In this document: positions 3,273-36,335 of the stretch, piece by piece
How positions within the stretch are numbered: the first letter of the stretch is position 1
How the letters are laid out: every line of letters begins with the position of its first letter
Assembly: GCA_041586155.1 (NCBI GenBank)
Contig: JBFHAT010000005.1
Span: 10,520-74,519, forward strand
Reading direction: 5' to 3'
Length of the DNA stretch: 64,000 nucleotides
Source of the DNA: Acidimicrobiia bacterium
GTDB lineage: Bacteria > Actinomycetota > Acidimicrobiia > Spongiisociales > JAENVV01
Program-made: the position numbers and the translations under genes
Notes under the pieces: model-generated
The model's database searches: none
Seen by the model: only the letters and a program-made list of their open reading frames with translations
Told to the model about the DNA's origin: nothing

Positions 3273-4147
3273 CGATCCGCCCCCAGGTTCTCCACCCAGG
3301 CAACCGTCTGGTCGATGAGCAGCCTGGTCAGCATCTTGTTCTCTTCTGTCTCGAACCGGTCGGCTTCGAACCACCACGCTTCCTCGTGACCCGTGGAGGA
3401 CGCCGTGACCTCGACACCTGCATCCTGCCACCCAGCCGCGACAAGGGCCAGATCCTCGGCCAGCTCGGAACGGCGCGACACCTGCAGCACGAGCGCTGCC
3501 TCGGAGGCGGCTTCGCTGATCAGTCGGGGAACGTCGATCGGCGCGACCGACCGATGGAGGTCACGCTCGATGAGGTAGTCGAGAACGACCAGACTGCCTT
3601 CGTTCTCGAGCATCGTGACGAGATCGGATCCCGAATGGCGCTTGTCTGCGCCGGAGGTCAGCTCCTGGACCTGCCGCACCCTGATGATGTCGGCCAGATA
3701 TCCCGCCGGATCGATGACCGGATCCCAGAGCACGAGCGGTGCCCCACCGCGCCGGACGGCTGCCCGGGCTGCCACGATGCCACCCCACCGCACCCCCATC
3801 AGGATCATGCGATCAGGACGACAACGCTCGGCGAGGGCACCGGCGGCAGCGTCGGCGTCGTCGGTCATGGACGCAACGGTCATCCCGCCGGGCACGTCGT
3901 CACTCAGACCCGTATTGCGGTATTGGAATCGCTGCACGGCCGCTCCGGCTGCGGCCAGCGCACGCGCCAAGAGCACTTCACGCCGATAGTTCTTGAAGTA
4001 CTCGGCGTAGATCGGGCTGCAGATCACCACTCCCGTCCCACTGGGCTGATCGGGCAGATACCGATGCCCGAAGAGCCCCGGACCAACTAGATCAGCTTCT
4101 TCGAGGAATCCCTCCGCCTGGCGAACAGCTCCCGCTCCAGGGCTCAT
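3269..4147 (-). CDS. Alpha/beta-fold hydrolase, first of the adjacent pair
   Basis: 292 aa with VVICSPIYAEY...GLSDD motifs of the a/b hydrolase fold. Overlaps both neighbours by 4 bp, so it reads as part of an operon. Confidence 0.6.
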   Translation of the reverse strand: MSPGAGAVRQAEGFLEEADLVGPGLFGHRYLPDQPSGTGVVICSPIYAEYFKNYRREVLLARALAAAGAAVQRFQYRNTGLSDDVPGGMTVASMTDDADAAAGALAERCRPDRMILMGVRWGGIVAARAAVRRGGAPLVLWDPVIDPAGYLADIIRVRQVQELTSGADKRHSGSDLVTMLENEGSLVVLDYLIERDLHRSVAPIDVPRLISEAASEAALVLQVSRRSELAEDLALVAAGWQDAGVEVTASSTGHEEAWWFEADRFETEENKMLTRLLIDQTVAWVENLGADR

Positions 4148-5256
4148 CCGGCCCCCTCGCCCGCCGGCGCAGCTTCACTCGCGTCGACGCCTCGCCCGCT
4201 TCCCTGTCCGGCCCGTCGGCTGCTGGCTTCTTCGCGCATCGCCAGCAACCGACCGCTGGGACCGACTGGTCGGAGCAGTGCGAAATCGACGGCATCGGTC
4301 GCACCGAGGGCGTACTTGTGGGGCTCGGACCCTCTGAGCAGATCCAGGCTGGACAACCCTTCGCTTCGCGCCCAGTCGAGGGCAGTCACGGTGAGGGCGA
4401 TACCGATGCCGTATCGGGCAAATTCGGGATTCCATCCTGTTTTGTAGCTGGCGAACGTTGTGCGGTGCCTGAACCCGAGGAGACCGGCGATCGCTTCGCC
4501 GTCCTTCTCCATCAGCAACAGCCACGGCCCGTCAGGTCCAGTCGCTCGCCGGGCGACGTCCGACAGGAAACGCAGGCGAAGCTCGTCGAACAGCCCGCCA
4601 CCTCGACCATCCCAGCGGCTGGCGTGCAGCTCTTGAAGCGAGCTGAGCCCGTCGGCGACCGCCGGGCCTGGCGAGACCCATCGTGGCTTCACGCCGAGCC
4701 CTTCGAGCTGTCGAGCTCGGCGTCTCACGTTCTCCCGCATCTTCTTCGACCAACGACCCTCGATGTCGTCGCTCAGCTGGAACGCCGGGCACCGAATCCG
4801 GTCCACCACGGTAGCTCCGGCGATCCGCAGCAATGCCGGTTCGTGCTGCTCGGCCACCGACTCGAACAGCAGCGTGCGGCCGGACCCCGTCTCGATGGCC
4901 GCTGCCACCAGCGCATGCTCGACGTCGCCGCCTGTCTCGCAAATGGGTCCGAGATGGTCGCCCGCCCCCGCGCCGGACCCGGCGAGACCCAAATAGCGAA
5001 GTGGCACGGGAACTCGCCTGTGGACTCGGCGTTGCAGCTCGGACAGCGCCAGCAGGCCAAGGAGAGTCCCATCATCGTCGCGAGCGGTGAGCACAGTCAG
5101 GGCTGCGTTGGGCTCGAGCACCTCATGCCAGGAGCGAATCCAGCTCGCCGTTTGGAAGAAGTTCGACACCCCGGCTCGGGCGAACAGACGATCCCATTCA
5201 CCCTCCAACTCGTCGAGCGCTTCATCGCCCGGAACGGCGGACACCTGAACAGTCAT
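4144..5256 (-). CDS. FemAB/CelD-like GNAT-fold acyltransferase (BioF2-like acetyltransferase domain)
   Basis: 370 aa. The family is ~350 aa with the WNPEFARYGIGIALTVTALDWARSEG region. It sits directly beside the hydrolase pair, as in PEP-CTERM accessory cassettes. Confidence 0.55.
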   Translation of the reverse strand: MTVQVSAVPGDEALDELEGEWDRLFARAGVSNFFQTASWIRSWHEVLEPNAALTVLTARDDDGTLLGLLALSELQRRVHRRVPVPLRYLGLAGSGAGAGDHLGPICETGGDVEHALVAAAIETGSGRTLLFESVAEQHEPALLRIAGATVVDRIRCPAFQLSDDIEGRWSKKMRENVRRRARQLEGLGVKPRWVSPGPAVADGLSSLQELHASRWDGRGGGLFDELRLRFLSDVARRATGPDGPWLLLMEKDGEAIAGLLGFRHRTTFASYKTGWNPEFARYGIGIALTVTALDWARSEGLSSLDLLRGSEPHKYALGATDAVDFALLRPVGPSGRLLAMREEASSRRAGQGSGRGVDASEAAPAGEGAG

Positions 5257-6377
5257 GGCCGGGCCGATTCCTCGACTTCGTACATCGTCAGCAATTGTCG
5301 GACGATGACGTCGGGCGTGAAGGCTTCGGCTTTACGTCGGCCTTCCGCCCCGCACGACATCCGTAGTTCGGCGCTCTCCGCCAGTTGCTTGATCCGGGCG
5401 GCGGCCAAGCCGGTATCACCGGGCGGAAACAGGAGACCGGCCTGGCCGTCGGTGTCCAGAAGCTGACGGATCGGCTCGAGGTCGGACGCCACGACCGGAA
5501 TCCCGTTGAGCATCGCCTCGGCCGTGATGCGGGAGAACGATTCATCGCGAGATGCCACGAGCACGATGTCGCATTGTTCATAGATGCGACGAACGTCGGA
5601 GTCAGGCCCGCGCATCACGAGGTCGACTCCTTGAATTGCATCCAGCTGCTGCCATACGGGGGTTGCGTAGTCGGAATCGAGCCTTTTCGTGAAGAGGCGC
5701 CACTGCAGATCCAGGCCGCGACAGCCTTCGATGATGTCGGGAAGCAGATCGAAGCCCTTGCGATGACGGCCGGCGCTGAGATACCCGACGACGAGGGGCC
5801 CATCACCGTCACTTCTCTCGGCGACGACATCAGCCGGATCGATCGGGTTAGGGACGATGGTCACCTCGTCCCACGTACACAGGCCATTCTCGACAGCAAC
5901 CGACGCGGCGGTGCGAGACACCGCGGCAAACCGGGGGCGCTGCAGCAACCACCGGAGAATGGGCCCGAGCCTCCGACCCCACGGTGAACCGACCGGGTCG
6001 TGCACCCATACGGTGACCGGCGCACGGGTGACCAATGCTGGGAGCACCGACAGGCTGAGCGCCCGGGTGGCGTTGGCGTGAATCGCATCGATTCTCGTGC
6101 GATGCCGAAGGGACCATCGCGCCAGTCTCAACGCCGCCCATATCCGATGCATTCGGTTGGGAAAGCGCGGCTTCCATGGCAAGTCGATCGTCTCTTCGGC
6201 CAGCCCTCGTTCCCGGACGAGCGCTCCGAATTCACCCTGCATCGGCGCCGCGAGCATCCTCACGACGCGCGGCCCGATCTCCTCGAGCAGCGTCGCCAGA
6301 CTCCGGTTCGAGCCGCCGAGTGGCGCCGGAACCGCGACGAAGAGCACCACCGGCCGTGCCGGCTGGTCGGGACTCAT
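5253..6377 (-). CDS. Glycosyltransferase family 4
   Basis: 374 aa. GT4 C-terminal domain (ESFSRITAEAMLNGIPVVASD). Overlapping start/stop with both neighbours. Confidence 0.75.
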   Translation of the reverse strand: MSPDQPARPVVLFVAVPAPLGGSNRSLATLLEEIGPRVVRMLAAPMQGEFGALVRERGLAEETIDLPWKPRFPNRMHRIWAALRLARWSLRHRTRIDAIHANATRALSLSVLPALVTRAPVTVWVHDPVGSPWGRRLGPILRWLLQRPRFAAVSRTAASVAVENGLCTWDEVTIVPNPIDPADVVAERSDGDGPLVVGYLSAGRHRKGFDLLPDIIEGCRGLDLQWRLFTKRLDSDYATPVWQQLDAIQGVDLVMRGPDSDVRRIYEQCDIVLVASRDESFSRITAEAMLNGIPVVASDLEPIRQLLDTDGQAGLLFPPGDTGLAAARIKQLAESAELRMSCGAEGRRKAEAFTPDVIVRQLLTMYEVEESARP

Positions 6378-7228
6378 GCTCGTCCCCAGAGATCAAAGCC
6401 GGGACCCACCAGCGAGCGCAGGTCTGCGAGGTCATCTGCCAATTGGTCCCAGATCCAGGCCTCGGTCGAAGGATCGATGTCGAGTGTGTCCCGCTCCAGC
6501 GGCCTGCTCAACGCCACCCGAAGACGCTGTTTGGCGAAGCGGGGCATCATGCGGCTCACTGCCGTGCCTCGAGCGGCTCTGCGCACCCGGTTGACGATCC
6601 CTGGTGCCTGGCGCTTGTCGGCGGTGCGGTTGAGTTCGCGCTCCACCGTCGCGATCGGCACGGTCGGATCGACCCCGATGAACGAGAAGATCTCATCGAG
6701 GACGGCTTCGCGCTCGTTGAGGAGCCGGTCCGACGACACCACCATGATCTGATCGCGAGGGAAGTGATCGAGGTAGAGGCGCAACTGGTAGGCGTACCTA
6801 CTGACATCGAGGTAGTCGGGACTCGCCCGCAGCGCCTCGGCGATCGGTCGTTCCTCCCTGCCCCTGTCGACGTAGTGGGCGTATTGGCTGCGGATCCGTG
6901 CCACCGGATCCCGGATGACATACACGAGCTGGATCGCCGGATACTCCTTGGCGATGCGAGCGGGCACGTCGGGAATCTTGGGTGCCTGCGAGTAACTGGT
7001 AGAGGCTTCGCCAATCGCCGTCTCGTCCCCGGCGTCGGCGAACAGCGACAGATACCAGTCGAGCCCCCGCGCCATGTTGACCGAGAAATAATGCGGTTCC
7101 TTGCGCTGGGGCATGAAGACGTCCGGGTGGGACCGCAGATACGCCGAGAGGCTCGTCGTGCCCGATTTGGCGGCACCGATCACCATGAATGTCGGATGTC
7201 TCGTCACGCGTTCACCCCCCTGGACCAT
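6374..7228 (-). CDS. Sulfotransferase (PAPS-dependent family)
   Basis: 5'-PSB-like motif MVIGAAKSGTTSL close to the N-terminus, followed by HPDVFMPQRKEPHYF. 284 aa. The start could instead be the internal Met at MVIGAAK. Confidence 0.75.
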   Translation of the reverse strand: MVQGGERVTRHPTFMVIGAAKSGTTSLSAYLRSHPDVFMPQRKEPHYFSVNMARGLDWYLSLFADAGDETAIGEASTSYSQAPKIPDVPARIAKEYPAIQLVYVIRDPVARIRSQYAHYVDRGREERPIAEALRASPDYLDVSRYAYQLRLYLDHFPRDQIMVVSSDRLLNEREAVLDEIFSFIGVDPTVPIATVERELNRTADKRQAPGIVNRVRRAARGTAVSRMMPRFAKQRLRVALSRPLERDTLDIDPSTEAWIWDQLADDLADLRSLVGPGFDLWGRA

Positions 7229-7254
7229 CGGATGTTAGCCAGGGAGGGTCCCGG

Positions 7255-8253
7255 TCACGAGCGGCCCCGGGCGTGGTGGATCGCCGGGTGGAGCCCACTG
7301 AGGATGATGGCGAGCCGGTCGAGCGATGTCGTCGAGTTCACCCGCAAACGGGAGATGCGGAGCCGCGCCCCCGGCGGCATGGGCTGCAAGTGATGATCGA
7401 ACAGGAAACCGAGGACGTAGCCGAGCTCGTCGAGCACCGACTCGGCCCGGCCGTCCCAGTTGCCGTTGGGATAGGCGAACGCACGCGGGGACCGTCCCAT
7501 CCACGCTGCAAGTTGGCGGTGCGCCGCCTCGATCTCATGCCGGATCTTGTCGGTCGGGCATCGATCGAGACACGGGTGGCTCATCGTGTGGTTCTCGATC
7601 ACCACGCCGCCACGCTCGAGCGCCGCCAGGTCATCGACGCTGAGTTGGGGACTCTGCACGGGTTCGCCGTCGACGGACGCCCGCAGCCATTCGATGGCTT
7701 CCAGCCGCTGGGAATCGGGCACGACTTTGAGCCGCTGGACCAAGGTGCCCGGACCCGGAAGGGGGTCGACGGCCCCGCGAGCCAGCAACGCCTCGACCTC
7801 GACCCACCACAGCGGCCGGCTCGTGCCGATCACCCCGGGAACCACGAAGGCGACGCCGGGTACCCCGCGCGCTTTCATCATCGGCAGGGCGGTGTCTCGC
7901 ACGGAGCGGATGCCATCATCGAACGTGATCAGCAGCGCGTTGGGCGGCAACGAGATTCGGCCGGCGGTGGCATCGATGGCATCTGCCAGTGAAATCGGAT
8001 GGTATGCCGACCGATACAGGTCCAGATGCGCCTCGAACTGGGCGGCGTCGTCGATGCCGTGGTACGCCACCACGGCGAGATCGCGACCGGCTCGCCGGCG
8101 AAAGAATGGCTGCAGGGGCGAACGCCGGAGGGTGGCATCGGCCAGGCGGTTCGGAACGATCAATCTACCTCCCAGCGTGAACCATAACGCGCGCCCCGTG
8201 ACCGGGTCGCTGGTTGAAGCGTGCCGACAATGGAGTAACGTTGCTCCGCACAA
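7255..8253 (-). CDS. Polysaccharide deacetylase (NodB homology domain)
   Basis: ITFDDGIRSV...NHTMSHP motifs. ORF 7255..8385 would overlap the divergent ABC gene, so the start was tentatively moved to the in-frame TTG at 8253. The start is uncertain. Confidence 0.6.
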   Translation of the reverse strand: MCGATLLHCRHASTSDPVTGRALWFTLGGRLIVPNRLADATLRRSPLQPFFRRRAGRDLAVVAYHGIDDAAQFEAHLDLYRSAYHPISLADAIDATAGRISLPPNALLITFDDGIRSVRDTALPMMKARGVPGVAFVVPGVIGTSRPLWWVEVEALLARGAVDPLPGPGTLVQRLKVVPDSQRLEAIEWLRASVDGEPVQSPQLSVDDLAALERGGVVIENHTMSHPCLDRCPTDKIRHEIEAAHRQLAAWMGRSPRAFAYPNGNWDGRAESVLDELGYVLGFLFDHHLQPMPPGARLRISRLRVNSTTSLDRLAIILSGLHPAIHHARGRS

Positions 8254-9340: not shown

Positions 9341-10155
9341 ATGGTCATCCCGTCGTGGCCGGCACGCGTCGACTCCGTCAGGTCGGGTCGGCCTTCTTCC
9401 GCCTCGGGCTGCAGCAGACCCTTGCGTACCCGTTGTCATTCGTCCAGAGCCAGCTCAGCTCCATCGTGCCGGCGATCATCTTCTTCTTCGTGGCGAAGCT
9501 GGTCGCCCAGGAGAACTACTACACGTCGGTGATCATCGGACTGGTCGCGGCGGGGGTCCTCGACGCCGGTGTTCGAGGCTTCACGCGGGAGATCGACGTG
9601 GCAATCAACCGAGGGTGGTTGGAGATGTTCCTCGTCGAACCGGTGCGCTGGCGTTTCCTCCCATTTGGGATGGCCCTGTGGCCCATCACCCTCGGCCTGG
9701 CCAGCGTCTCGATGATCGCCCTCACGGCCGCCGCCTTGGGTGCACAGTTCCGGCTCGAGAACCTCCCACTCGCCCTCGTGTTCCTTCTGTTGGCGCTCGC
9801 CGCCGGACTGGTGATCGGAACACTGTCCGCCTCCCTCAAGGTGCTGGCAAAATCCGGCGATCCCGTCCTCTTCGTGTACGGGCTGCTCACCCAGATCTTC
9901 GCCGGCGTGTACTTCGATCTCGACGTGATCCCTGCGCCACTGCGCGTCATCTCGTGGGCGTTGCCCCACACGTACGCCATCGCCGCGCTGCGACGCCTGC
10001 TGCTGCCCGAAGGCAGCCAACTCCCGTCGATCTCGGTGGCGACATCCACCTGGGTACTGGTGGCGTTCTGCGTAGTCGGATATCCGGTGGCACTGTGGGT
10101 CTACGGACGGGCACTGGAATACGGCCGCCGTCTGGGGGTGCTCAGTGGCTATTGA
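9337..10155 (+). CDS. ABC-2 type transporter permease (Wzm-like)
   Basis: 272 aa with six predicted TM segments. ATGA overlap with the ATPase gene. Confidence 0.75.
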   Translation: MNGHPVVAGTRRLRQVGSAFFRLGLQQTLAYPLSFVQSQLSSIVPAIIFFFVAKLVAQENYYTSVIIGLVAAGVLDAGVRGFTREIDVAINRGWLEMFLVEPVRWRFLPFGMALWPITLGLASVSMIALTAAALGAQFRLENLPLALVFLLLALAAGLVIGTLSASLKVLAKSGDPVLFVYGLLTQIFAGVYFDLDVIPAPLRVISWALPHTYAIAALRRLLLPEGSQLPSISVATSTWVLVAFCVVGYPVALWVYGRALEYGRRLGVLSGY

Positions 10156-11131
10156 ACCCGGAGAACCCCAGCCGGTGTTTCCGATATTCACGGGCGCCGG
10201 TCGTTCGGGCACCACCTTGTATCGCTCGATCTTCGACTCGCACCCTGACCTCTTCGTCGCACACGAAGCGCATTTTCTCGGTCCCATGGCGGCACGGGCC
10301 GGGCGATACGAGATGAACGGAGCATTCGACCGACAGCGCTTCGTCGACGACCTCTACGACGACCACAAATTCGTGGTGCTGGGCGTCGACCGCCGAGAGG
10401 TGGCCGAAGCCTTCGACGTCGCCGGTCCTGCCGACTTCGCGACCGCCGCCCGGACGGTGTTCGGCGTGCTGGCGCAGCGGGCGGGCAAGCCGAGATATGG
10501 CGACAAATCTCCCAACTATGCGAGCCGCATCACCGAGATCGCGTCCGTCCTGCCCGAGACGAAGTTCGTTCACATCGTGCGGGACGGCCGCAACGTCGCC
10601 CTTTCGCTGCTCGACCGGGGGATCGGACCTGGCACCCTCATCGACGCCGCGAGCCATTGGTCTTCCGTGGTTCGCAAGGTCGGCAATGCGAGCCGTGAGC
10701 TGGGGCCGGACCGGATCCTCCAATCGAGGTACGAGGATCTCATCGCCGAGCCAGAGTCGGAGGTGAGAAGGATCTGCGACTTCTTGCATCTGCCGTTCGA
10801 TCCCCGCATGCTGGCGTATCGGGAGCGAGTGGACGAGATCCTCGAACCGCTGAAAGCGGTCGAATGGGACTGGGCGCATGAGAACCTCTCCGCTCCACTC
10901 GATCCGACGTTACGTGACTGGCGATCGACGATGGAATCGGACGACGTGGCGGCGTTCGAATCGGTTGCGGCCGAGGAGCTGGAGCGCCACGGGTACACCA
11001 TCGCTTCGGATCCGGCAGACCGGCCGGCTGTGCGAGCCGCTGCCAAGGGTCGATGGCTCGGTAAGCGGGTGGCCTTCCGGATACGGCAACCACTCCGGAA
11101 ACGACGCCACCGCCGCCGTCTCGAGCCGTGA
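10145..11131 (+). CDS. Sulfotransferase
   Basis: IFTGAGRSGTTLYRSIFDSHPDLFVAHE 5'-PSB motif. GTG start overlaps the permease stop. Confidence 0.75.
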   Translation: MAIEPGEPQPVFPIFTGAGRSGTTLYRSIFDSHPDLFVAHEAHFLGPMAARAGRYEMNGAFDRQRFVDDLYDDHKFVVLGVDRREVAEAFDVAGPADFATAARTVFGVLAQRAGKPRYGDKSPNYASRITEIASVLPETKFVHIVRDGRNVALSLLDRGIGPGTLIDAASHWSSVVRKVGNASRELGPDRILQSRYEDLIAEPESEVRRICDFLHLPFDPRMLAYRERVDEILEPLKAVEWDWAHENLSAPLDPTLRDWRSTMESDDVAAFESVAAEELERHGYTIASDPADRPAVRAAAKGRWLGKRVAFRIRQPLRKRRHRRRLEP

Positions 11132-12033
11132 GCTCTCTGGGTCCTCGGCCCAGCTTCTTCATCGTTGGTGCACCAAAATGCGCCACGACGTCGATGTACG
11201 AGTACCTGCGCGCCCACCCCGATGTCTTCATGCCCGACAGACGGGAGATGAACTACTTCGGCTCTGATCTGCCGCTGCCGAATCGGCTGCCAGATCTCGA
11301 AACCTATCTGTCGTTCTTCACCGAAGCGCAACCCGGCCAGGTCGTAGGGGAAAAGTCCGTGAATTACCTGTTCTCGCGGTCGGCTGCGCACGAGCTCTTG
11401 GAGTTCGATCCCGAGGCGAAAGCGATCATCATGCTGCGCAACCCGGCGGACGTCGTGTTCTCGTTGCACCGCCAGTTCTTGTTCTCGGCCAACGAGGACA
11501 TCATCGACTTGGCCTCGGCCCTCGATGCCGAGGATGAACGCATTCGAGGGCTCCGGATCCCGGCAGGCGCCCACAACCCGGCGATGCTGGCGTACACGAG
11601 AGTTGCCTCGTTTGCGCCGCAGGTGCGGCGGTACCTGGATCAATTCGGTCCGGATCGGATCGCCGTGGTGATCTTCGACGACTTCGCTGCAGACCCCGAG
11701 CGTGAATATCGGTCGGTGCTCCGGTTCATCGGCGTCGATCCCGGATACGAACCTGACTTCGAGGTCCACAATCCGGCCAAGCGGGTACCGAATGTGGCGG
11801 TGCGTAAGTTCATGAAGACCCATCGCGGCCTCAGTGCCGTGATCAACCGCATCGTCCCTGAAGACCTGCTCGACCGTGCCCGTTCGAGTTTGGCCCGACT
11901 CCAACCGCAACCCGAGCGCCAGCTCGATCCGGATCTCCGTCGACGGCTCGTCGAGGTGTTCGACGACGACATCAGCCAGCTCGAAGCGCTGATCGACCGC
12001 GACCTGTCGGGCTGGCGGCTCGTACCGGCTTAG
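11128..12033 (+). CDS. Sulfotransferase
   Basis: FFIVGAPKCATTSMYEYLRAHPDVFMP motif. GTGA overlap with the preceding gene. Confidence 0.75.
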   Translation: MSSLGPRPSFFIVGAPKCATTSMYEYLRAHPDVFMPDRREMNYFGSDLPLPNRLPDLETYLSFFTEAQPGQVVGEKSVNYLFSRSAAHELLEFDPEAKAIIMLRNPADVVFSLHRQFLFSANEDIIDLASALDAEDERIRGLRIPAGAHNPAMLAYTRVASFAPQVRRYLDQFGPDRIAVVIFDDFAADPEREYRSVLRFIGVDPGYEPDFEVHNPAKRVPNVAVRKFMKTHRGLSAVINRIVPEDLLDRARSSLARLQPQPERQLDPDLRRRLVEVFDDDISQLEALIDRDLSGWRLVPA

Positions 12034-13046
12034 ACGACCTCGAGCTCGCGCAGGATCCGAAACACCTCCGCGCCGATCGGAGCGGTGCGAGAGATCGGGA
12101 TGTGGGCGAAGTCGACCTGTGCCTGCACGCCTTCGAGCTTCAACAGACGATCGATGTCGACCACATGGAAATCGAGCCGAGCGGAGAGTTCGCTGAGCGC
12201 CAGATTGAACTCGCGCCGGCGCAGCGGATGGGCCGACCCCAGCAGCTGGTAGTTGTGATGCTGACTGCCCGGATCGACCACCAGGCTGTTGTAGATGATG
12301 ACGTGTGCGCCGACTTTCTCACGAATCAGCCTGATCACCTCTTCCAGATTCTTCTGAAAGTCGGCGACATCGATCCGGCCGATGCTCTCGAAGTTCTTCT
12401 TGAACCAGCGGGCGACCTCCGGGTCAGGTAGCACCTTGTCCGTCAGGTTGTTGAGCCAGAAGCCGCCCGGATCGATCAGGTATCCCTCGCTTCGGTGGCG
12501 GTAGACGACGCGCACGAGATCCGAGCCGATGGAGAGGATGACGACCGTCTTGGGAAACCGGCCAAAGCGGGGATGGTCATCGATGACGAAGTCTTTCTCG
12601 GTGAACAGGCGAGGTCCGAAATAGTGCTCTTCGAGCCGGAGCCGGCGCCTCACCTCCGCGGTGTCGGCGGTGGCTGCGTCGCCGAGCGTCTGGAGCATCT
12701 GATCGGTCCGGTGCGCCCCCAACTCGCCACCTGTGCCTTGTTTGAAGATGCCGACCGTGCCCTCGAGTCCGGGACCGATCAGCGGCGCCGCAGTGAATGT
12801 GGACGGCAAGTCGCAGCCGCCACGCAGCAGCACCCCCACCCGCCGCGCATCGGGATCGTTCTTGGAGCGGATCACGGCGAAATTGGGACCGGTGTACTGC
12901 ACGAAGTCGGGGCCGGTCTTCTTCCGGACGCGATCGACCACCGCCTTGCGGTACGTGGCCTTGAAACGCCGCTCGAATGCCGTGTCGGTACCGGCGAGCT
13001 TGCGCCAACCTTTGACGCCTTTACGTAGCAGCTTCTGCATCGTCAC
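12030..13046 (-). CDS. Hypothetical protein, possible SGNH/GDSL-like hydrolase
   Basis: VVILSIGSDLVRV is block-I-like and DFAHIPISR is DxxH block-V-like. Assignment is tentative. Confidence 0.35.
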   Translation of the reverse strand: MTMQKLLRKGVKGWRKLAGTDTAFERRFKATYRKAVVDRVRKKTGPDFVQYTGPNFAVIRSKNDPDARRVGVLLRGGCDLPSTFTAAPLIGPGLEGTVGIFKQGTGGELGAHRTDQMLQTLGDAATADTAEVRRRLRLEEHYFGPRLFTEKDFVIDDHPRFGRFPKTVVILSIGSDLVRVVYRHRSEGYLIDPGGFWLNNLTDKVLPDPEVARWFKKNFESIGRIDVADFQKNLEEVIRLIREKVGAHVIIYNSLVVDPGSQHHNYQLLGSAHPLRRREFNLALSELSARLDFHVVDIDRLLKLEGVQAQVDFAHIPISRTAPIGAEVFRILRELEVV

Positions 13047-13456
13047 AGCTCCTCGGCGGTACGGTCCATCACCTCGGCCACGACCCTCATCTTCGAGGTG
13101 GAGTCAGGACTCCCGCCGTTGTCGCCGAACTCGGGCGCGACGTGAGCCAGCACGTCTCCAACCCGGAACGGGCTGCCCTCACCCAGCTCGATCGAGCGCA
13201 TCGTGCCTGGTTCTGACGCAATGATACGGAACCGCAGCCGCAGCTTGACGGTCCGCGTTTGTTCCGACTTCGCGCGACGCCGCCTGAGCAGACGGGAGGC
13301 GTCTTTGGTTCGATCTACGGCCTCCGATTCGCGCGCCTCGATCTCGCAAAGAACGTCACCGAAGGCGATCGCGCCGCCCTCGGCGACGTGCCATTTCGTG
13401 ACCGAGCCGCCGATCACGCCCATGCCGAGCTCGGGTACTTCGACCGACAGGATCAC
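13043..13456 (-). CDS. Small lipoyl/biotinyl-attachment-like domain protein lacking the modifiable lysine
   Basis: VPELGMGVIGGSVTKWHVAEGGAIAFGDVLCEIEARESEAV resembles the E2 lipoyl domain, but the position of the lipoyl-Lys is Arg. 137 aa. Confidence 0.4.
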   Translation of the reverse strand: MILSVEVPELGMGVIGGSVTKWHVAEGGAIAFGDVLCEIEARESEAVDRTKDASRLLRRRRAKSEQTRTVKLRLRFRIIASEPGTMRSIELGEGSPFRVGDVLAHVAPEFGDNGGSPDSTSKMRVVAEVMDRTAEEL

Positions 13457-14130
13457 TCGGCGCCGTCCCGACTGCCCGACTGGACGAGCAAAGGTCGGCG
13501 TTCGAAGAATCCGTAGTCCTCGAGAATGCGCAGTGCCTCTGCGGCGAGTGCCGCGTTGGCAGCTGCGGAGTACTCGAGAGGACCCGCGACATGGTCGGCG
13601 GCCCCCATTTCCGCCAGGATCCGATCCGCATCGATGATCGAGACGCCCTCTCTGATCGACAGTTGGAGCAACGCCAGGTCGACCTGCTGTGCTCGCCGGG
13701 TGAAGGGGTCGGGCTGGTCGTGGTAGTTCGAGATCGTCACGGTGGGGTCGATAGTCGAAGCATTCAGGAAGACGACGTAGATCTCGTCATCCTTGAACCT
13801 CTTCACGACTCTCTCCATCGCCCCCAGGAAACCGTCGGGATGAGATGCACCGACCAGCACGTCGGGATGCGGGCCTAGGAACACGAGATCGGGCCGGTCG
13901 GCGATGGCGCGACTCCGACCGGACTCCAGCTCAGACAACAGGTCGGGATAGCCGCCCCGCGCCTCGATCGTGAGGTCGACCTGCACGCCGTGCTTGCGCC
14001 GGACGAGGTCGGCGAGCCCTTCTTGGAGGACGCTTCCTCCATCGGCTCGCGACACCAGCGCGTCGACGAGTTCCTTGTTCCCCTTGACGACGACCGACAG
14101 GCGGTCCTGGCCGCCGAGACGAGGTGACAT
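13453..14130 (-). CDS. Hypothetical protein
   Basis: 225-aa ORF in an operon-like overlapping arrangement between the ACP and the lipoyl-like gene. No confident family assignment. Confidence 0.4.
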   Translation of the reverse strand: MSPRLGGQDRLSVVVKGNKELVDALVSRADGGSVLQEGLADLVRRKHGVQVDLTIEARGGYPDLLSELESGRSRAIADRPDLVFLGPHPDVLVGASHPDGFLGAMERVVKRFKDDEIYVVFLNASTIDPTVTISNYHDQPDPFTRRAQQVDLALLQLSIREGVSIIDADRILAEMGAADHVAGPLEYSAAANAALAAEALRILEDYGFFERRPLLVQSGSRDGAE

Positions 14131-14135
14131 CGATC

Positions 14136-14395
14136 CTACGCCGCCGGCGAGCGCCTGCTCTCGATCAGCGTCGTGATCGCAGAGATGTCCTTGAAGTTGT
14201 CGAGCGTGACGTCTTCAGGCTCGATCTCGATGCCGAATTCCTCCTTGATGTGCCCGAGGAGGAGGAAGATGCCAAGCGAGTCGATGATCTCACGTTCGAG
14301 GAGGTCGGTGTCGTCTTCCAGGGCCTGATCAGGCCGGCCTTCCATGAATTCTTGGCGGATGAACGCTTTGACCGCTGCAGCAGTGTTCTCCACGA
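14136..14395 (-). CDS. Acyl carrier protein (phosphopantetheine-binding)
   Basis: LLEREIIDSLGIFLLLGHIKEEFGIEIEPEDV contains the DSL phosphopantetheine attachment motif. Start taken at GTG 14395, ~86 aa. The upstream part of ORF 14136..14621 is probably not translated. Confidence 0.6.
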
Positions 14396-14738
14396 ATAAC
14401 CCCTTTCGCGCGCCATGGTGTCTTGGGCAAGCCCGGCCGAAGCAGGCTTGCGCCTCCCAGCGCCTCGCCTGCCGGAGCGTGATGGTCATCCACTCCCTTG
14501 CCACCATCAATCCACAGCGGTGCGGCTGAACTCTATCGGCGGCCCGCGCGGCTGTCCACCCGCCGGTCACCCCCACCTCGACAGCAAAGGAGCACGTCGG
14601 TAAGGTGCTCAGAACCCACAACTTCCCAGACGCCGCCTGATCCCAGCAGGCCCGCGAAGCCCTTCATCCACTTCGGCGCATTGCCGATAGGGTTCGAAGA
14701 CGACCCGATGCTGGTCGAGGCGCCAGGAGTCTCCCAGA

Positions 14739-15944
14739 ATGAAACACACCATCCTCATCTCGATCACGGCTGCGGTGACCGCCGCCACTCTCTTCGTCGC
14801 GGCGCCGTCGCCGGCAGTTGCATCGAGCAGCCTCAGCCCGATCGGCGTGGTCGGTTGCTCGAACACCCGGAACGCAGTCACCGGATACCACGATGTGTCG
14901 TCGGCCAATGCCTTCTGGAGCGCCGCGTCCATCGCCAGCTACGGCGGCGGCTCCGTCGTGCAATGGGAGAAGGCCAGCGACCCACGCTGGGCGACATTCG
15001 ACGAACAGCTGGCCGCCCGCGGGGCAGCAGCCGTGTGGCTGCAGCTGTGCGTCGCCGACAGCTTCAACGGACCCCTCACCGTCGCAGACAACATCGTCGC
15101 TCTGATCCGCCAGCGCACCAATGTTCCCATCTATGCGTCGGCCATCGACGACACGCCATCGTGCAACCGGTCGAATCCGGCTCTGTCCCAGGACATGGTG
15201 GACCACCTCGTCGCCAACGGATCGGCGGAGCGTGGCCCGGTCATGCAGCCCCTCACGGCCAGCCAAACACTCGACGGTTGTCACGCCAACGACGTGGGCG
15301 ACGATGTGTGGGGTGAGACGTTGGCTCTGTTCTTCACCGGGATCGGCGAGGGGGACGATCCGTCGCCGACCCCCAACCCCAGCCCCAACCCCAGCAGTGG
15401 ATCCGGCCTGTTCATCGACGACGACAACAGCCCCCACGAGACAAACATCGAGTGGATCGCCAAGGCCGGGATCACGCTGGGCTGCAATCCTCCCGCCAAC
15501 GATCGCTACTGCCCCGACGACTCCATCACCCGAGGGCAGATGGCGACGTTCCTCGTGCGCGCCCTCGACCTTCCCCCGGCTCGAGGAGCGGTCGGGTTCA
15601 AAGACGACGACGGCATCCATGAAGGCAACATCGAAGCTGTCGCGGCGGCAGGTATCGCATTCGGATGCAACCCCCCGAGCAACGACCGGTTCTGCCCATA
15701 CGACCCGGTCACCCGGGCGCAGATGGCCTCGTTCCTCGCACGAGCGTTCGATCTCCCTCACGTCTCCAACGGCCCGACCTTCATCGATGACGATGGGTCC
15801 GTGCACGAGGCCAACATCGAAGCGATCGCGGCTGCCGGCATCACGGTGGGATGCAACCCGCCCAAAGGCGACAGGTTCTGCCCTGACGATCCGGTGACCC
15901 GCGCCCAGATGGCCACCTTCCTCGTACGGGCGCTCACTCAATGA
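14739..15944 (+). CDS. Secreted protein: SGNH-like N-terminal domain plus three Cys-containing SLH-like repeats
   Basis: Signal peptide MKHTILISITAAVTAATLFVAAPSPAVA. GCSNTR and DGCHAN motifs. Three ~55-aa repeats of the form FIDDDxxxHExNIExIAxAGIxxGCNPPxxDRxCPxDxxTRxQMAxFLxRA. RBS CCAGGAG. Confidence 0.6.
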   Translation: MKHTILISITAAVTAATLFVAAPSPAVASSSLSPIGVVGCSNTRNAVTGYHDVSSANAFWSAASIASYGGGSVVQWEKASDPRWATFDEQLAARGAAAVWLQLCVADSFNGPLTVADNIVALIRQRTNVPIYASAIDDTPSCNRSNPALSQDMVDHLVANGSAERGPVMQPLTASQTLDGCHANDVGDDVWGETLALFFTGIGEGDDPSPTPNPSPNPSSGSGLFIDDDNSPHETNIEWIAKAGITLGCNPPANDRYCPDDSITRGQMATFLVRALDLPPARGAVGFKDDDGIHEGNIEAVAAAGIAFGCNPPSNDRFCPYDPVTRAQMASFLARAFDLPHVSNGPTFIDDDGSVHEANIEAIAAAGITVGCNPPKGDRFCPDDPVTRAQMATFLVRALTQ

Positions 15945-17182
15945 TCGGGGTGCCGATCGGCTGACGAGCCTCGGGCTCTCCGTGCACTGATCGCCCATAG
16001 GCCGGCGCCCACGACCATTCCCGCAATGACCGCCAAGGCGAGCCAAACCGCCGCCGAGGACGACGATTGTGGAGCCGGCACATCCGGCGGAACGGCCTGT
16101 CCGAGTGTCGTACTGGGTGTTTCGACCCTCGACGTGGTGGTGGTTTCCGCGTCGACGGTCGTCTCGGGGGCCGAGGTGGCAGGAACCGTGCTGGCTGGGG
16201 CGACGTCGGTGGTCACCACCGGCGGCACCGTCTCCGGCGTCACGCCGTCGGCGTAGAACCAAGGCGTCGCCGTCGGGTCCGTCAAGAAATGAGCGAGGAG
16301 CAGTTCGCCGACCTTCTCCTCGCCCGAAAGCACGGGGTGAATGCCCTCCTGGAAGTCGTCGCAACTCCATACCAGCCCGTCGGCGCGAGGCTGCATTCCA
16401 TCGGCCCACATGTAGGGTCCCCACCCGATCCAAGGGGCGAGGCCGGAGGAGGGATCGAGCTCCGGAGCGTCCTCGACCTGGAGTTCGATCGTCCATTTCA
16501 CCGAGAACCCGTTCTCGTAGGCGATCGGTTCCCCTTGATCGGCGTAACCGCCGTAGATGCGGCTCGACAGGTAGACGAGCCGCAAATTGGGAAACCGCTC
16601 CCGCAACACCTGCAACACCTCGACCATCTGGCCGACGTACCGCTCACCCTCGCGTGGGAACCGGCTCGGACCTCGATCCTGGGCCGGCAGCTTGACCCAG
16701 GCCACCTGCACCTGCTCGGCGGTCAGCCCTGCCTCGTCGAGCAGGCTGTCGACTTGAAGCCAGGGCCGGCCCGACGAAGAGGTCCACACCCCCAGAGGCG
16801 CACCGTTCTGGGCGAGGTTGGCAGTTCGCAGCGCCGGATTGACCCGACCATCTCTGGCGACCAGCCGTTCGAAGGCAGCGAACTCCGTTCGCGTGTTCGA
16901 TACGCCAATCGACACGAGACCGATCGAACCATCCGATGCGGGGGAGCCGTCCAGTCCACGCGGCACAACATCGGCGGCAGCCGCCAGCCCCTGTTGCAGG
17001 TGATGATCGGGCGGAAGATTGGACCCGTCGTACAGGCCGCCGGCCTCGCCTCGATACTCGCCACCCACCAACTCGGTCAGCGGCACCAGGCCGGTGCGGT
17101 CGTTCGTACAGTCCTTGGCGGCGCGTTGCGCAGCCGCTGGTGCACCACTCAGCACCAGCAGGACCGCGATGATCATTGCCAC
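15938..17182 (-). CDS. Secreted SGNH-like hydrolase paralog with Thr/Pro-rich linker and C-terminal TM anchor
   Basis: Signal peptide. GVSNTR and DDFQEGIHP motifs. Linker TPETVPPVVTTDVAPASTVPATSAPETT. C-terminal AVWLALAVIAGMVVGAGLWAISARRARG. Confidence 0.55.
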   Translation of the reverse strand: MAMIIAVLLVLSGAPAAAQRAAKDCTNDRTGLVPLTELVGGEYRGEAGGLYDGSNLPPDHHLQQGLAAAADVVPRGLDGSPASDGSIGLVSIGVSNTRTEFAAFERLVARDGRVNPALRTANLAQNGAPLGVWTSSSGRPWLQVDSLLDEAGLTAEQVQVAWVKLPAQDRGPSRFPREGERYVGQMVEVLQVLRERFPNLRLVYLSSRIYGGYADQGEPIAYENGFSVKWTIELQVEDAPELDPSSGLAPWIGWGPYMWADGMQPRADGLVWSCDDFQEGIHPVLSGEEKVGELLLAHFLTDPTATPWFYADGVTPETVPPVVTTDVAPASTVPATSAPETTVDAETTTTSRVETPSTTLGQAVPPDVPAPQSSSSAAVWLALAVIAGMVVGAGLWAISARRARGSSADRHPDH

Positions 17183-17345
17183 GAACAGTGGCCGTCCACG
17201 TTGGTTGATGACTCACTCTCCGGTCGTGCCGAGCTTCGATGACACCCCGCCGACGGCACGGGCGTCGATCCGGGGGGAGTTGCCCAGAGCGACACACGTT
17301 AGATGGGTCGGCCGGCTACCGGATCCGTGGTGTTCTCCGAACTTT

Positions 17346-17374
17346 CTTCACAAAACGCCCCAATGTGCGTACTA
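17346..17374 (+). promoter_or_regulatory. Candidate sigma-70-type promoter for the Wzz-like gene (TTCACA-17 bp-TACTAT)
   Basis: AT-richer hexamers with 17-bp spacing, ~50 bp upstream of ATG 17425 within a 240-bp intergenic region. Confidence 0.3.
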
Positions 17375-17424
17375 TTGTCGGCGGGCGCGGCGGAGGCACC
17401 GCGAGTAAAGGGTGGGAAGGAACC

Positions 17425-19323
17425 ATGGCTCTGCGCAGGTTGAGGCGTTTACTCCGCTCACATTGGGTGATCGTGGCAGCACTCGGCATGGTCGGCCTGG
17501 GAGCAGGGATCTTCTTTGCCGACATGCAGAATCAATCCATCGAACCACTCTACGAGGGAACCGCGCTCGTAAACGTGGGCTCGCCTGCCACGGACCGTGA
17601 CCGTGCCGCCGTCGCCGAGCAGCTGGAAATCGCCGAGGACACCGCCACCCGCGCCAACCGGGACGTCATCGACAACTTCCTCGGTCAGGTCAGTGTCGAC
17701 GAACGCAGCGGCGACCTCCTGTTCGTCTCCCGAGGCGAGACCGAGCGGGAAGCGCTCGTCACCGCCGAGGGAATGCGCCTCGCCTACTTCGAGCAGTTGC
17801 GGGAGGACACCGCCGACGCCAACTCCGGGCGCATCAACGAGATCCTGGCCGAGGGCGCAGCGCTGCTGGCCCGCTTGAACGAGATGGATGCCGAAGCCGC
17901 CGCCCTGGCGGCCGCCGAAGTGGTTCCGATCCGCGAGCTCACCGCCGAAGAACAAGCGGACCTCGACTTCCTCCAGGCGCAGATCGACGGGCTCGTACAG
18001 CGAAGCTTCTCGCTGTCGGCAGACCTCATCCTCGCCGAGGTCGGCGAGAGCCGTTCCGGCACCGTCGAGGAGATCACCGAGCAGCTCGAGCTCATCGCCG
18101 CCAGGCTCGACGAGCTGTACCAGGCCCGTGACCGACTTCTGGGAGATTTGGAACCACCCGACCGCGCGGGACAGGCACCGGCCGCCGCCGAACAGGAGAC
18201 GTCCACGGAGCCGATCCTCACGGAAGGACGAGGAGCTCCCTTTGCGCTCGAGGGGATCGAGCCGCCCCAACTGGAGGGAACATGGACCCGCAGTGCGCTC
18301 GAGGAGCGGCTCACCGAGCTCGAGACCGAATTCGAGACACTCTTCGCCGCTCAGAATGAACCGCCGCCGGCGGCTCCGGACCTGGAACCCGTCGTCGTCG
18401 ACAATCTCACTCCCACCCGTACCGCTCCCCCACTGAGCGGCGCCGTCGGGCTCCTGGGCGGCGCCTTGCTGGCCGCCGGGGCGCTGGCAGCCGAAGACCG
18501 CATCCGACGCCGGGTGTTCGTGGGCCCCGACGCGGCGCCGCTCCGGCTCCTCGCCGAGATGCCCCCGGCCACCGGTCGGCTCATCGAAGGGATGGGTGGC
18601 GCTCCGGCACGTTGGGCGCCCGGACTGCAACAATTACGCAACTCGATTCTCGAAGCGGCCGACGAGCGAATCAACGACCCCATCGTCGGGATCACGCCCG
18701 CTCGGGTCAGCAAGACCGAAGTCGAGGCGCTCGTGAAGGACCTCGGCCAGAGCCTCGCCGCGACCGACCGCACGGTTCTGCTCTTGGATCTCGACTTCAC
18801 GACGTCGATGGAAGACGACACCGACCCCACGACACTCTCGATGGCCCAACTGCTGCGTGACGTTCGGCGTGGCGGCGATGCAGACATCACCCGCCTCAAG
18901 ACGGCACTGGCCGAATCGGTGATCCCTCACGCCTCCTTCTCGATGATTCCGGCGGGCTTCACGACCGAAGATCCGACCGACGTGGTGGCCACCGCAGCGT
19001 TCGCCACGATGATCCAGGCCGCCCGCGAGCAAGCGGACATCGCCGTGATCGTCGCTCCCGACATCACCGACACCTCCGCCCACGCCATGCTCCGCAAGTT
19101 CGACCACGTGGTCGTGCTGATGCGAGCGGGACGCACGCGCTGGCCGGACTTTGGTGCGGCGATCGAACATCACCGCGAGAACCTGCTCGGCGCGGTCCTG
19201 ATGGTGGGCAGAGAACCGCGCGTCCGGCGCTGGATCCCCAGGCTCCGGATCCCCAAGCCACGTCTCCCCAAGATCGCGTTGGGCCGCAAGCCCAAGATGC
19301 GACGGGCCGCCAAAGGCTCCTGA
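17425..19323 (+). CDS. Polysaccharide co-polymerase (Wzz/PCP2-like) with coiled-coil region and degenerate C-terminal P-loop (BY-kinase/MinD-like) domain
   Basis: ATG 17425 preceded by GGGAAGGA. TM1 WVIVAALGMVGLGAGIFFA, a long Ala/Glu/Leu coiled coil, then TM2. The C-terminal domain has VLLLDLDF and IVAPD motifs but no GxxxxGK[ST]. Confidence 0.6.
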   Translation: MALRRLRRLLRSHWVIVAALGMVGLGAGIFFADMQNQSIEPLYEGTALVNVGSPATDRDRAAVAEQLEIAEDTATRANRDVIDNFLGQVSVDERSGDLLFVSRGETEREALVTAEGMRLAYFEQLREDTADANSGRINEILAEGAALLARLNEMDAEAAALAAAEVVPIRELTAEEQADLDFLQAQIDGLVQRSFSLSADLILAEVGESRSGTVEEITEQLELIAARLDELYQARDRLLGDLEPPDRAGQAPAAAEQETSTEPILTEGRGAPFALEGIEPPQLEGTWTRSALEERLTELETEFETLFAAQNEPPPAAPDLEPVVVDNLTPTRTAPPLSGAVGLLGGALLAAGALAAEDRIRRRVFVGPDAAPLRLLAEMPPATGRLIEGMGGAPARWAPGLQQLRNSILEAADERINDPIVGITPARVSKTEVEALVKDLGQSLAATDRTVLLLDLDFTTSMEDDTDPTTLSMAQLLRDVRRGGDADITRLKTALAESVIPHASFSMIPAGFTTEDPTDVVATAAFATMIQAAREQADIAVIVAPDITDTSAHAMLRKFDHVVVLMRAGRTRWPDFGAAIEHHRENLLGAVLMVGREPRVRRWIPRLRIPKPRLPKIALGRKPKMRRAAKGS

Positions 19324-28844: not shown

Positions 28845-29690
28845 TCAAGCCGTCTGGTGGTCCTCGCCCAGGTAGGCCTTGATCACCTCGGGGTTGCGCT
28901 GGATTTCGTGGGGTGGGCCGGTGGCGATCGGTACCCCGAAATCGAGCACCATGATGCGGTCGGCAATGTCCATCACCAGCCCCATGTCGTGCTCGACCAG
29001 GATCATGGCGATGTCGAGCTCGTCGCGGATGTCGAGAATGAACCGAGCCATATCCTCGGTCTCTTCGAGGTTCATCCCGGCAACGGGCTCGTCCAACAGC
29101 AACAGCTCGGGCCCCATGGCCAGCGCCCGGCCCAGCTCGACCCTCTTCTGCACCCCGTAGGGCAGAAGCCCGACCGGGTATTTGCGCCACTGCTCGATCT
29201 CCAAGAAATCGATGATGTCTTCGACCTGGACCCGATTGGCGATCTCCTCCCGCTTGGCCCGCCCCCACCACACGGCCCCGGCCAGCCAACCGTGCTTCAT
29301 GCGGACGTGCCGCCCGGTGAGGATGTTCTCGAGCACGGTCATGTGCGGGAACAACGCAATGTTCTGGAACGTGCGGGCGATGCCCAGCTCGGCGGTCTTG
29401 TTGGGCTTGAGACCCGTGATCGACCTGCCCTTCCATCGGATCTGACCTTCCTGAGGCCGATACACCTGATTGACGCAGTTGAAGATCGAGGTCTTGCCGG
29501 CGCCGTTGGGGCCGATCACGGAGAAGAGCTCACCAGTATCGACGTGGAATGAAACACCGTCGATCGCCTTCAAACCCTTGAACGAGAGGTGGATGTCCTC
29601 CACCTCGAGCAGATGCTCGTAGGGCTCTGCGACGTCATGAGCGGTCTCGAGACCCTCGAGGGTGTGATGCGAGCGGACGACGTCAGCCAC
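28845..29690 (-). CDS. livG: ABC transporter ATP-binding protein, LivG-type
   Basis: Walker A GPNGAGKTS. LivG-like N-terminal region. 281 aa. Confidence 0.8.
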   Translation of the reverse strand: MADVVRSHHTLEGLETAHDVAEPYEHLLEVEDIHLSFKGLKAIDGVSFHVDTGELFSVIGPNGAGKTSIFNCVNQVYRPQEGQIRWKGRSITGLKPNKTAELGIARTFQNIALFPHMTVLENILTGRHVRMKHGWLAGAVWWGRAKREEIANRVQVEDIIDFLEIEQWRKYPVGLLPYGVQKRVELGRALAMGPELLLLDEPVAGMNLEETEDMARFILDIRDELDIAMILVEHDMGLVMDIADRIMVLDFGVPIATGPPHEIQRNPEVIKAYLGEDHQTA

Positions 29691-29723
29691 GAACGGTCCT
29701 CTCGCTCGGTGCCGGCCGGGAAC

Positions 29724-30518
<795 letters not shown>

Positions 30519-30574
30519 CTCTCCCTCCGTGGAGCGCCGGGGGCGAAACGCCCCCGGCGCTCATTCGTCTGTCG

Positions 30575-31978: not shown

Positions 31979-32017
31979 TTCAGTTCTTCCTCCTGGTTCT
32001 GATTCGTCGAAGGCCAC

Positions 32018-33256: not shown

Positions 33257-33284
33257 TGGTGCATCTCCCGGGGGTGGACTCTTC

Positions 33285-36184: not shown

Positions 36185-36335
36185 GACGCTCCTAGGAGGG
36201 TGGCGTGTGCAGATCGCGGCGAACCGTAGCGGCCCGAGCACTCACCGCAAGCAGATACCATATCGGCGCCAGCCGGCGGAGGACCTCGGAAACGAGGAAA
36301 ATCGATCGCCTGGGTGATGCGGCCGGAGGGTGCGC

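Follow-up and report, generated by a model that had tools for sequence, protein, structure and literature searches.

We examined a convergent gene pair at positions 14739-17182 of a 64,000-nucleotide stretch from an Acidimicrobiia bacterium (assembly GCA_041586155.1, contig JBFHAT010000005.1), this whole stretch being referred to as the window. The pair consists of gene A on the forward (+) strand and gene B on the reverse (-) strand, and both open reading frames (ORFs) are present exactly as claimed by an earlier reading made from the letters alone (the sequence-only reading). The N-terminal domains of the two products belong to two unannotated families that are homologous to each other by profile comparison, and the domain of B has the fold of SGNH hydrolases and transferases. 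The features of the pair are listed below (aa, amino acids; AF2, AlphaFold2; TM, transmembrane).

14739-15944 (+): gene A, 401 aa; signal peptide, compact SGNH-like domain, Pro/Ser linker and three SLH repeats
14739-14822 (+): predicted signal peptide of A, aa 1-28, MKHTILISITAAVTAATLFVAAPSPAVA; Kyte-Doolittle peak at aa 3-24, Lys2, AVA-S end
14826-15353 (+): putative catalytic domain of A, aa 30-205, ~175 aa, from the family profile and the AF2 model
14853-14870 (+): block I of A, G39-C40-S41-N42-T43-R44, with S41 as the putative nucleophile
14940-14954 (+): putative block II of A, Y68-G-G-G-S72, which may provide the oxyanion Gly
15273-15290 (+): block V of A, D179-G-C181-H182-A-N184, in the loop before the last helix
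15354-15404 (+): Pro/Ser linker of A, DDPSPTPNPSPNPSSGS, as read from the sequence
15405-15941 (+): three SLH repeats of A, aa 223-283, 284-344 and 345-401, each with a G-C-N-P-P-x-x-D-R-[YF]-C-P Cys pair
15938-17182 (-): gene B, 414 aa; signal peptide, SGNH domain with N-terminal extension, Thr/Pro linker, TM anchor and basic tail
17129-17182 (-): predicted signal peptide of B, aa 1-18; hydrophobic N-terminus ending in APAAA-Q
16256-17128 (-): putative catalytic domain of B, aa 19-309, ~290 aa, from homologs, AF2 and Foldseek
16889-16906 (-): block I of B, G93-V-S95-N96-T-R98
16802-16813 (-): putative block II of B, A124-Q-N-G127 (family consensus A-Q-G-G)
16334-16348 (-): block V of B, E279-G-I-H282-P283, in the loop before helix 285-301
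16055-16255 (-): Thr/Pro/Val-rich linker of B, aa 310-376
15989-16054 (-): C-terminal TM helix of B, aa 377-398, 22 residues, AAVWLALAVIAGMVVGAGLWAI; Kyte-Doolittle >2
15941-15988 (-): cytoplasmic basic tail of B, SARRARGSSADRHPDH, as read from the sequence

Coding evidence and surface anchors

Both genes show the coding-type bias of real genes (GC content at third codon positions, 0.82 for A and 0.77 for B, in a window of 65% GC), and a GGAG motif lies 10-13 nt 5' of the ATG of gene A. The two genes have 7 bp in common (15938-15944), spanning both TGA stop codons, and an intergenic check found no terminator-like hairpin between them; the transcripts of A and B must therefore each terminate within the opposite gene. 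Among public proteins, P0122 is one residue off the product of gene A and P0002 is 100% identical to that of gene B. The exact B protein is absent from the contig index, and a 412-aa twin of B lies on a 1.9-kb contig that offers no gene context.

The C-terminus of A passes the Pfam SLH model (PF00395) with 43.2 bits against a cut-off of 20.8 (E 3.8e-11), and its NCBIfam match lies in the SLH region of inl_like_NEAT_1. Like canonical SLH domains, it has three tandem repeats of ~60 aa with F-x-D...G-I...T-R-x-Q-x-A motifs; the repeats share 60-73% mutual identity and align with the three canonical SLH repeats of the ORF at 12-1205. They differ in the canonical G-Y-x-D-G-T-F-R-P turn, which is G-C-N-P-P-x-x-D-R-F-C-P in A, with a 3-residue insertion between two Cys that probably form a disulfide. 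The same fusion of an A domain to three Cys-pair SLH repeats was found in the homologs P0136, P0161 and P0170. The ORF at 12-1205 (+) is itself truncated by the start of the window and consists of a non-SLH N-terminal part followed by its three SLH repeats (E 4.8e-45).

The linker of B is rich in Thr, Pro and Val (15, 11 and 10, respectively, of the 63 residues at aa 310-372), and similar linkers occur in its closest homologs P0003-P0019 and P0030. All of the closest homologs (46-53% identity, from Acidimicrobiia metagenome-assembled genomes) carry the linker, the TM helix and the basic tail. Sorting of the sortase, PEP-CTERM, GlyGly-CTERM or exosortase type was rejected for B, as neither B nor its orthologs have a conserved motif ahead of the TM helix; this argues for a simple C-terminal anchor in the membrane that leaves the catalytic domain on the outside. 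Lipoprotein anchoring was also rejected because there is no lipobox Cys. The sequence-only reading had called these C-terminal modules unusual; the SLH triplet with Cys pairs and the Thr/Pro linker, TM segment and basic tail are all there, and they are ordinary anchors. Its proposal that both proteins are surface-anchored agrees with the SLH repeats of A and the TM helix of B, and its proposal that both are exported is consistent with the hydrophobic N-terminal signals and the presumably extracytoplasmic Cys pairs.

Family conservation, profile homology and fold

A word-indexed search with the A domain returned one homolog, wrongly hinting at an orphan; an exhaustive HMMER scan of 1.84 billion representatives yielded 554 clusters at 50% identity, of which 432 lie below 1e-10. 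The family ranges from Acidimicrobiia to Patescibacteria and the DPANN archaea Nanoarchaeota and Woesearchaeota, where its members are mostly standalone proteins of 210-250 aa. Among 152 extracted domains, the conserved positions are G39, C40, S41, W60, W76, W84, W100, C104, S134, C142, G166, P167, D179, C181 and H182. In block I, G39 is present in 147/147, S41 in 146/147, C40 in 138 and N42 in 55/152; in the putative block II, Y68 in 135/152, G70 in 129/152 and G71 in 139/152; and in block V, D179 in 139/152, H182 in 145/151 and N184 in 114, while the Cys within the D-G-C-H loop (C181, 151/151) never varies. Within P0123 and P0124 the A-type domain is duplicated (two copies each).

The B domain has >772 homologs, and outside Acidimicrobiia the family occurs in Planctomycetota, Verrucomicrobia, Armatimonadota and Sumerlaeota. 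In an alignment of 31 family members, S95, N96, G280 and P283 are present in all 31, H282 in 30/31 and an Asp at position 279 in 29/30; the putative block II is conserved at A124 (29/31), Q (25/31), G126 (23/31) and G127 (27/31). A conserved N-terminal extension of 60 aa carries the motif GGLYPxGxNxxPxxH. Some B homologs bear the JGI label 'lysophospholipase L1-like esterase', and besides the TM-anchored form there are fusions to SLH and CARDB domains. The B-family genes are often tandem or multicopy (three in the loci L005 and L009; two in L011, L002, L015 and L017).

The Cys residues of both families follow a pattern. In the B family, C25 and C274 are jointly present in 22 sequences and jointly absent in nine, with no mixed sequences, which points to a disulfide tying the N-terminal extension to the block V loop. 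In the A family, sequences that lack C104 always lack C40 too, and the ten Cys of A (four conserved in the domain, six in the SLH repeats) can all be paired by position. This co-variation and positional pairing fit with exported proteins.

The sequence-only reading had described the two products as paralogs and had proposed an alignment of their N-terminal domains as a check. Pairwise BLASTP of A against B gave nothing significant (best E 0.6), though hhalign of the two family profiles gave 97.7% probability (E 1.6e-12) over 180 collinear columns at ~18% identity, and the A-family HMM detected B-family ORFs at E ~1e-4 among the fetched loci. In the profile alignment, G-C-S-x-T pairs with G-M-S-N-T in block I, the G-G turn of Y-G-G-G-S with that of A-Q-G-G, the W-W-Q-L-C strand with V-A-W-V-K-L, V-Y-V-S with A-Y-L-S-S-R, and D-G-C-H-A-N with D-G-T-H-P-S in block V, so that Ser, acid and His are in register. 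Homology thus stands and close paralogy does not: as judged from these profiles, the domains are homologous members of two separate families of one superfamily, and not recent paralogs. Of the shared string IGV(x)GxSNTR reported earlier, the core G-x-S-N-T-R was confirmed, the full string being approximate (IGVVGCSNTR in A, VSIGVSNTR in B), and the block V motifs DGCHAN and EGIHP were found at aa 179-184 of A and aa 279-283 of B. The Asn after the Ser is invariant in the B family and variable in the A family, which is indicative that S-N-T-R in both proteins is partly a coincidence.

The AF2 model of B (predicted local distance difference test, pLDDT, 91.4; predicted TM-score, pTM, 0.89) begins helix 95-110 with S95, immediately after strand 86-93, and places E279 and H282 before the last long helix (285-301). 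A Foldseek search of this model against the Protein Data Bank (PDB) gave 19 matches at E<=1e-3, all of them SGNH hydrolases or transferases, the best being Campylobacter jejuni PatB (8gr2, E 6e-7, probability 1.00; 8tlb, E 4e-6), with brain platelet-activating factor acetylhydrolase, GDSL esterases including EstL5, a sialic acid esterase and ChoE among the others. Just beyond this threshold were the CE6-like At4g34215 (2apj, rank 21, 1.1e-3), a CE3 enzyme (5b5s, rank 23, 1.3e-3) and an acetyl xylan esterase (7ddy, 1.5e-3). In all, >30 SGNH entries were matched at probability 1.00, and no other fold ranked above them. The three-layer alpha/beta/alpha architecture with a five-stranded parallel sheet is therefore supported for B by the model and its structural neighbours. 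The model of A (pLDDT 95.0, pTM 0.91) alternates strands and helices (including the strands E6-9, E69-74 and E102-106), and S41 opens helix 1 immediately after strand 1. Kinship of A with GH128 or GH6 was rejected at TM values of 0.27-0.32. The SGNH-like nature of A, also put forward by the sequence-only reading, accordingly follows from its profile homology to B, the matching secondary-structure topology and weak Lipase_GDSL_2 matches of four family members (best E 0.0065).

In both families the conserved Ser of block I (G-x-S) stands at the start of helix 1 and a D-x-x-H motif lies in the loop before the last helix (D-G-C-H in A, D-G-T-H in the B family, E-G-I-H in this B), and the block table of solved SGNH proteins (PMC10792757) together with the model topology places Ser, acid and His of A and B at the known block I and V positions. 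These three are the best-conserved positions of both families, which is indicative that the motifs are not due to chance. The sequence-only reading had regarded block I as non-canonical; the G-x-S-N-T-R is present, and the G-x-S-N-T motif is not very unusual, since the Asn varies in the A family and solved SGNH proteins have, besides GDS, GQSNM (2APJ, 1ZMB), GNSFS, GSSEL (DltD) and GTSYS/GTSHS (AlgX) at this place (PMC10792757), GQSNM being used by CE20 enzymes as well (PMC12313940).

Comparison with the SGNH/GDSL superfamily (Escherichia coli TesA/TAP, 1IVN) shows that B has the flavodoxin-like alpha/beta/alpha fold, that the Ser of A and B directly follows strand 1, that the putative block II is Gly-rich, and that DGCHAN of A and DGTHPS of the B family are near DGIHPN of TesA (PMC10792757, Table 2). 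Unlike its known members, A and B have neither a GDS motif nor a conserved block III Asn and remain below every Pfam GDSL threshold; A is minimal, at 175 aa, and has four conserved Cys, and B carries the 60-aa N-terminal extension and large insertions. Alignment of both profiles with TesA by hhalign matched the block V stretches at a low probability of 2% and 11% and was not used as evidence of membership. With the CE6/CE20/SASA group (At4g34215 2APJ, 1ZMB) A and B share the S-N of block I, the G-G of the putative block II and the D-x-x-H of block V (PMC10792757, PMC12313940); 2apj is among the Foldseek matches of B, two B-family members weakly touch Pfam SASA, and the B motifs G-[MV]-S-N-T, A-Q-G-G and D-G-T-H-P resemble the GQSNM group. 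The differences are G-[MV]-S-N-T in place of GQSNM, the lack of a QGESD block III, SASA E-values no better than 0.06 and an unconserved Asn in the A family. The extracytoplasmic, membrane- or wall-associated enzymes PatB, PatB1 and Ape1 also act on envelope glycans, include the best structural neighbours of B and have a link to SLH proteins through the secondary cell wall polysaccharide (SCWP; PMC7759979). They differ in that A and B have no PatA (MBOAT) partner nearby, show no sequence similarity to them (12% identity when aligned by structure), and would presumably act on a sulfated heteroglycan instead of peptidoglycan.

Genomic context of the gene pair

The part of the window from 1 to 21700 constitutes a sulfated-glycan locus that encodes an SLH protein, two GT4 glycosyltransferases, a GNAT protein, two Hydrolase_4 proteins, three sulfotransferases (6374-7228, 10145-11131 and 11128-12033), a polysaccharide deacetylase, an ABC-2 exporter pair, an acyl carrier protein (ACP), a small lipoyl-like protein, two unknown paralogs, a DegT aminotransferase and TauE, with UPF0182 and DivIVA downstream. 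The locus is syntenic in several contigs of Acidimicrobiia metagenome-assembled genomes, and related loci add a FAD/Trp-halogenase-like gene that is absent from the locus in the window. TM-anchored B orthologs occur in the loci L013, L015 and L017 in a sulfotransferase/GT4/ACP/DegT/TauE/UPF0182 context: L013 has sulfotransferases, the lipoyl-like protein, DegT and TauE; L015 has the same plus UPF0182 and DivIVA; and L017 has GT4 genes, the deacetylase and a 700-aa unknown, with two B copies each in L015 and L017. The locus of P0136, the closest ortholog with the architecture of A, encodes sulfotransferases, GT4, ACP, an AMP-binding ligase and acyl-CoA dehydrogenases. In this locus (L018), three consecutive genes at 3990-8191 each encode an A-type domain, which in one case is joined to a beta-helix and SLH. 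A 728-aa protein of L018 consists of an A-type domain, a CEMIP-like beta-helix and SLH. P0001, which has the A domain and no SLH, adjoins two Hydrolase_4 genes, an acetyltransferase and GT4. The tie of both proteins to the locus glycan, proposed by the sequence-only reading, is thus borne out to the extent that orthologs of both genes recur in syntenic loci. The Pfam-scanned ORFs of the window locus include no acyl translocase of the MBOAT or AT3 type, and neither do the annotated neighbours in L013, L015, L017 and L018.

A four-gene cassette at 12030-14621 (-) encodes a 338-aa product with a weak Lipase_GDSL_2 match (E 0.0013), a 137-aa Biotin_lipoyl-like protein, a 225-aa protein that has no Pfam match and the ACP (PP-binding); it recurs in L013 and L015. 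The 338-aa and 225-aa products are mutual paralogs (BLASTP E 2e-6) and have no signal peptides. Kinship of the B family with the cytoplasmic 338-aa ORF (12030-13046) was rejected at an hhalign probability of 0.8%. On the other side of the pair, the 694-aa ORF at 17239-19323 (+) has no Pfam match, an N-terminal TM segment and long Ala/Glu/Leu-rich stretches, and may be a chain-length or co-polymerase-type protein; the 700-aa protein of L017 is its counterpart, likewise with no Pfam match. An ABC uptake operon of the branched-chain amino-acid type (two ATPases, a binding protein and two permeases) followed by an AMP-binding enzyme lies at 28845-36241 (-) and is apparently unrelated.

Possible deacylation, transfer or scavenging at the cell surface

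We consider it somewhat more probable than its opposite that A and B are extracytoplasmic SGNH-fold serine hydrolases of two unannotated families that deacylate or trim the glycan of the locus. In such a scheme, the glycan would be assembled in the cytoplasm by the products of the surrounding locus and exported via the ABC-2 transporter, and A and B would be exported by Sec signal peptides. A would be held on the wall by the binding of its three SLH repeats to a wall polymer, and B would be attached to the outside of the membrane through its long Thr/Pro stalk and C-terminal TM helix. The Ser at the N-terminus of helix 1 (S41 in A, S95 in B), activated by the His of the D/E-G-x-H loop (D179/H182 in A, E279/H282 in B), would attack an ester on the sugar polymer, with the oxyanion stabilised by the backbone NH of the Ser and of the conserved Gly-Gly turn. 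By this chemistry A and B may remove or redistribute O-acyl groups on a sulfated and probably acylated glycan. Two points favour hydrolysis over transfer: the glycan is predicted to be assembled in the cytoplasm and then exported by the ABC-2 transporter, and genes for MBOAT or AT3 are lacking nearby.

Several observations weigh against this assignment. The top structural neighbour of B, PatB, is an O-acetyltransferase and not a hydrolase. The Foldseek search of the A model against PDB matched nothing significantly (the best E, 0.017, was to unrelated folds, and SGNH entries came only at E 0.04-0.09, namely 4s1p with TM 0.52/0.50 and Ape1 8gld), and a search of PDB sequences with the HMM profiles A1, A2 and A4 gave chance matches only. 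Outside the SLH region, neither A nor B has a Pfam or NCBIfam match above threshold. The gathering thresholds of Lipase_GDSL, Lipase_GDSL_2 and SASA were missed, with no match for A or B themselves and E 0.0065-0.15 for family members; the sub-threshold matches of B-family members, to Lipase_GDSL, SASA and GDSL_2, agree with the SGNH assignment, and a Pfam scan of ten A-family proteins made to place the weak GDSL_2 matches found none. The block III Asn (G-x-N-D after strand 3) is conserved in neither family, the position being W-W-Q-L-C in the A family and W-[VIL]-K-L-A-x with a variable last residue (N in 9/31) in the B family; some known SGNH groups likewise lack this Asn (the [++-++] group; PMC10792757). 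Among 30 family members compared, B alone has Glu at position 279, which is a conservative change from the Asp of its relatives. Members of the B family outside Acidimicrobiia are mostly soluble secreted proteins with C-terminal dockerin, TIG, EF-hand or TIGR03437 domains, which is indicative that the B family as a whole is not dedicated to the glycan locus. Finally, the A ortholog P0161 adjoins glnA and a regulator, outside any glycan locus.

The main rival explanation, which we regard as unlikely, is that A and/or B are extracytoplasmic O-acyltransferases of the PatB/PatB1, OatA C-domain, AlgX/AlgJ or DltD kind that add acyl groups to the exported glycan. Every known system of the PatB/OatA/AlgX/DltD kind requires a membrane acyl translocase (MBOAT or AT3), and the lack of such a gene in the window locus and among the annotated neighbours in the four related loci counts against transfer. 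The two C. jejuni PatB structures at the head of the Foldseek matches of B agree with a transferase, but fold similarity cannot distinguish a transferase from a hydrolase. The ACP, GNAT and alpha/beta hydrolases of the locus, and the AMP-binding ligase and acyl-CoA dehydrogenases of related loci, are also compatible with acyl transfer, and a non-GDS block I is typical of transferase branches (GSSEL in DltD, GTSYS in AlgX; PMC10792757). A precedent on a wall polymer bound by SLH proteins is given in a review passage (PMC7759979, citing Sychantha 2017), which describes Bacillus anthracis PatB1 as an SGNH-type enzyme that O-acetylates the SCWP.

Alternatively, A and B could be general secreted carbohydrate esterases that scavenge external acetylated polysaccharides, their gene neighbourhood being incidental. 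The phylogenetic breadth of the B family, its tandem arrays, its fusions to dockerin, CARDB, TIG and TIGR03437 domains, the acetyl-xylan and sialate esterases among the Foldseek matches and the position of P0161 all speak for such a role. Conversely, B genes of the Acidimicrobiia subclade, which has a linker and TM anchor of its own, stay in the glycan locus in at least four independent contigs, A-type genes also recur in glycan loci, and attachment to the cell suits enzymes that act on the envelope of that cell; we therefore consider scavenging improbable. A purely binding or structural role of domains that merely retain the SGNH scaffold is very improbable: the missing block III Asn, the Glu of B and a few members that lack the His or Ser (P0121; two A-family members with G or S for the His) would fit it, but conservation among hundreds of divergent sequences is highest at Ser, His and acid, and A and B both retain all three.

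Returning to extracytoplasmic hydrolases, a broader and rather speculative proposal, to which we give little credence, is that A-type proteins represent an unrecognised minimal (~175 aa), disulfide-braced SGNH lineage that would work together with the B family outside the cytoplasm, the two being devoted to tailoring an envelope glycan characteristic of Acidimicrobiia that is sulfated and acylated in an ACP-dependent manner; the invariant Cys of block V would serve in catalysis or redox control and not just in a disulfide.

The chemistry of A and B is expected to be conventional, the families being new and the superfamily well known; the finding is of value for annotation and as a way into an unstudied envelope polymer rather than for any new mechanism. 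Two sizeable families (at least 554 and >772 clusters) can be placed in the SGNH esterase/transacylase superfamily, with named putative catalytic residues. All of their members are annotated 'hypothetical', with no Pfam or NCBIfam model and no solved relative, and the placement could thus improve the annotation of many metagenomic proteins. In essence, the pair flags a conserved Acidimicrobiia locus as a candidate for the synthesis of a sulfated, probably acylated cell-envelope glycan, on which A and B may act as surface tailoring enzymes.

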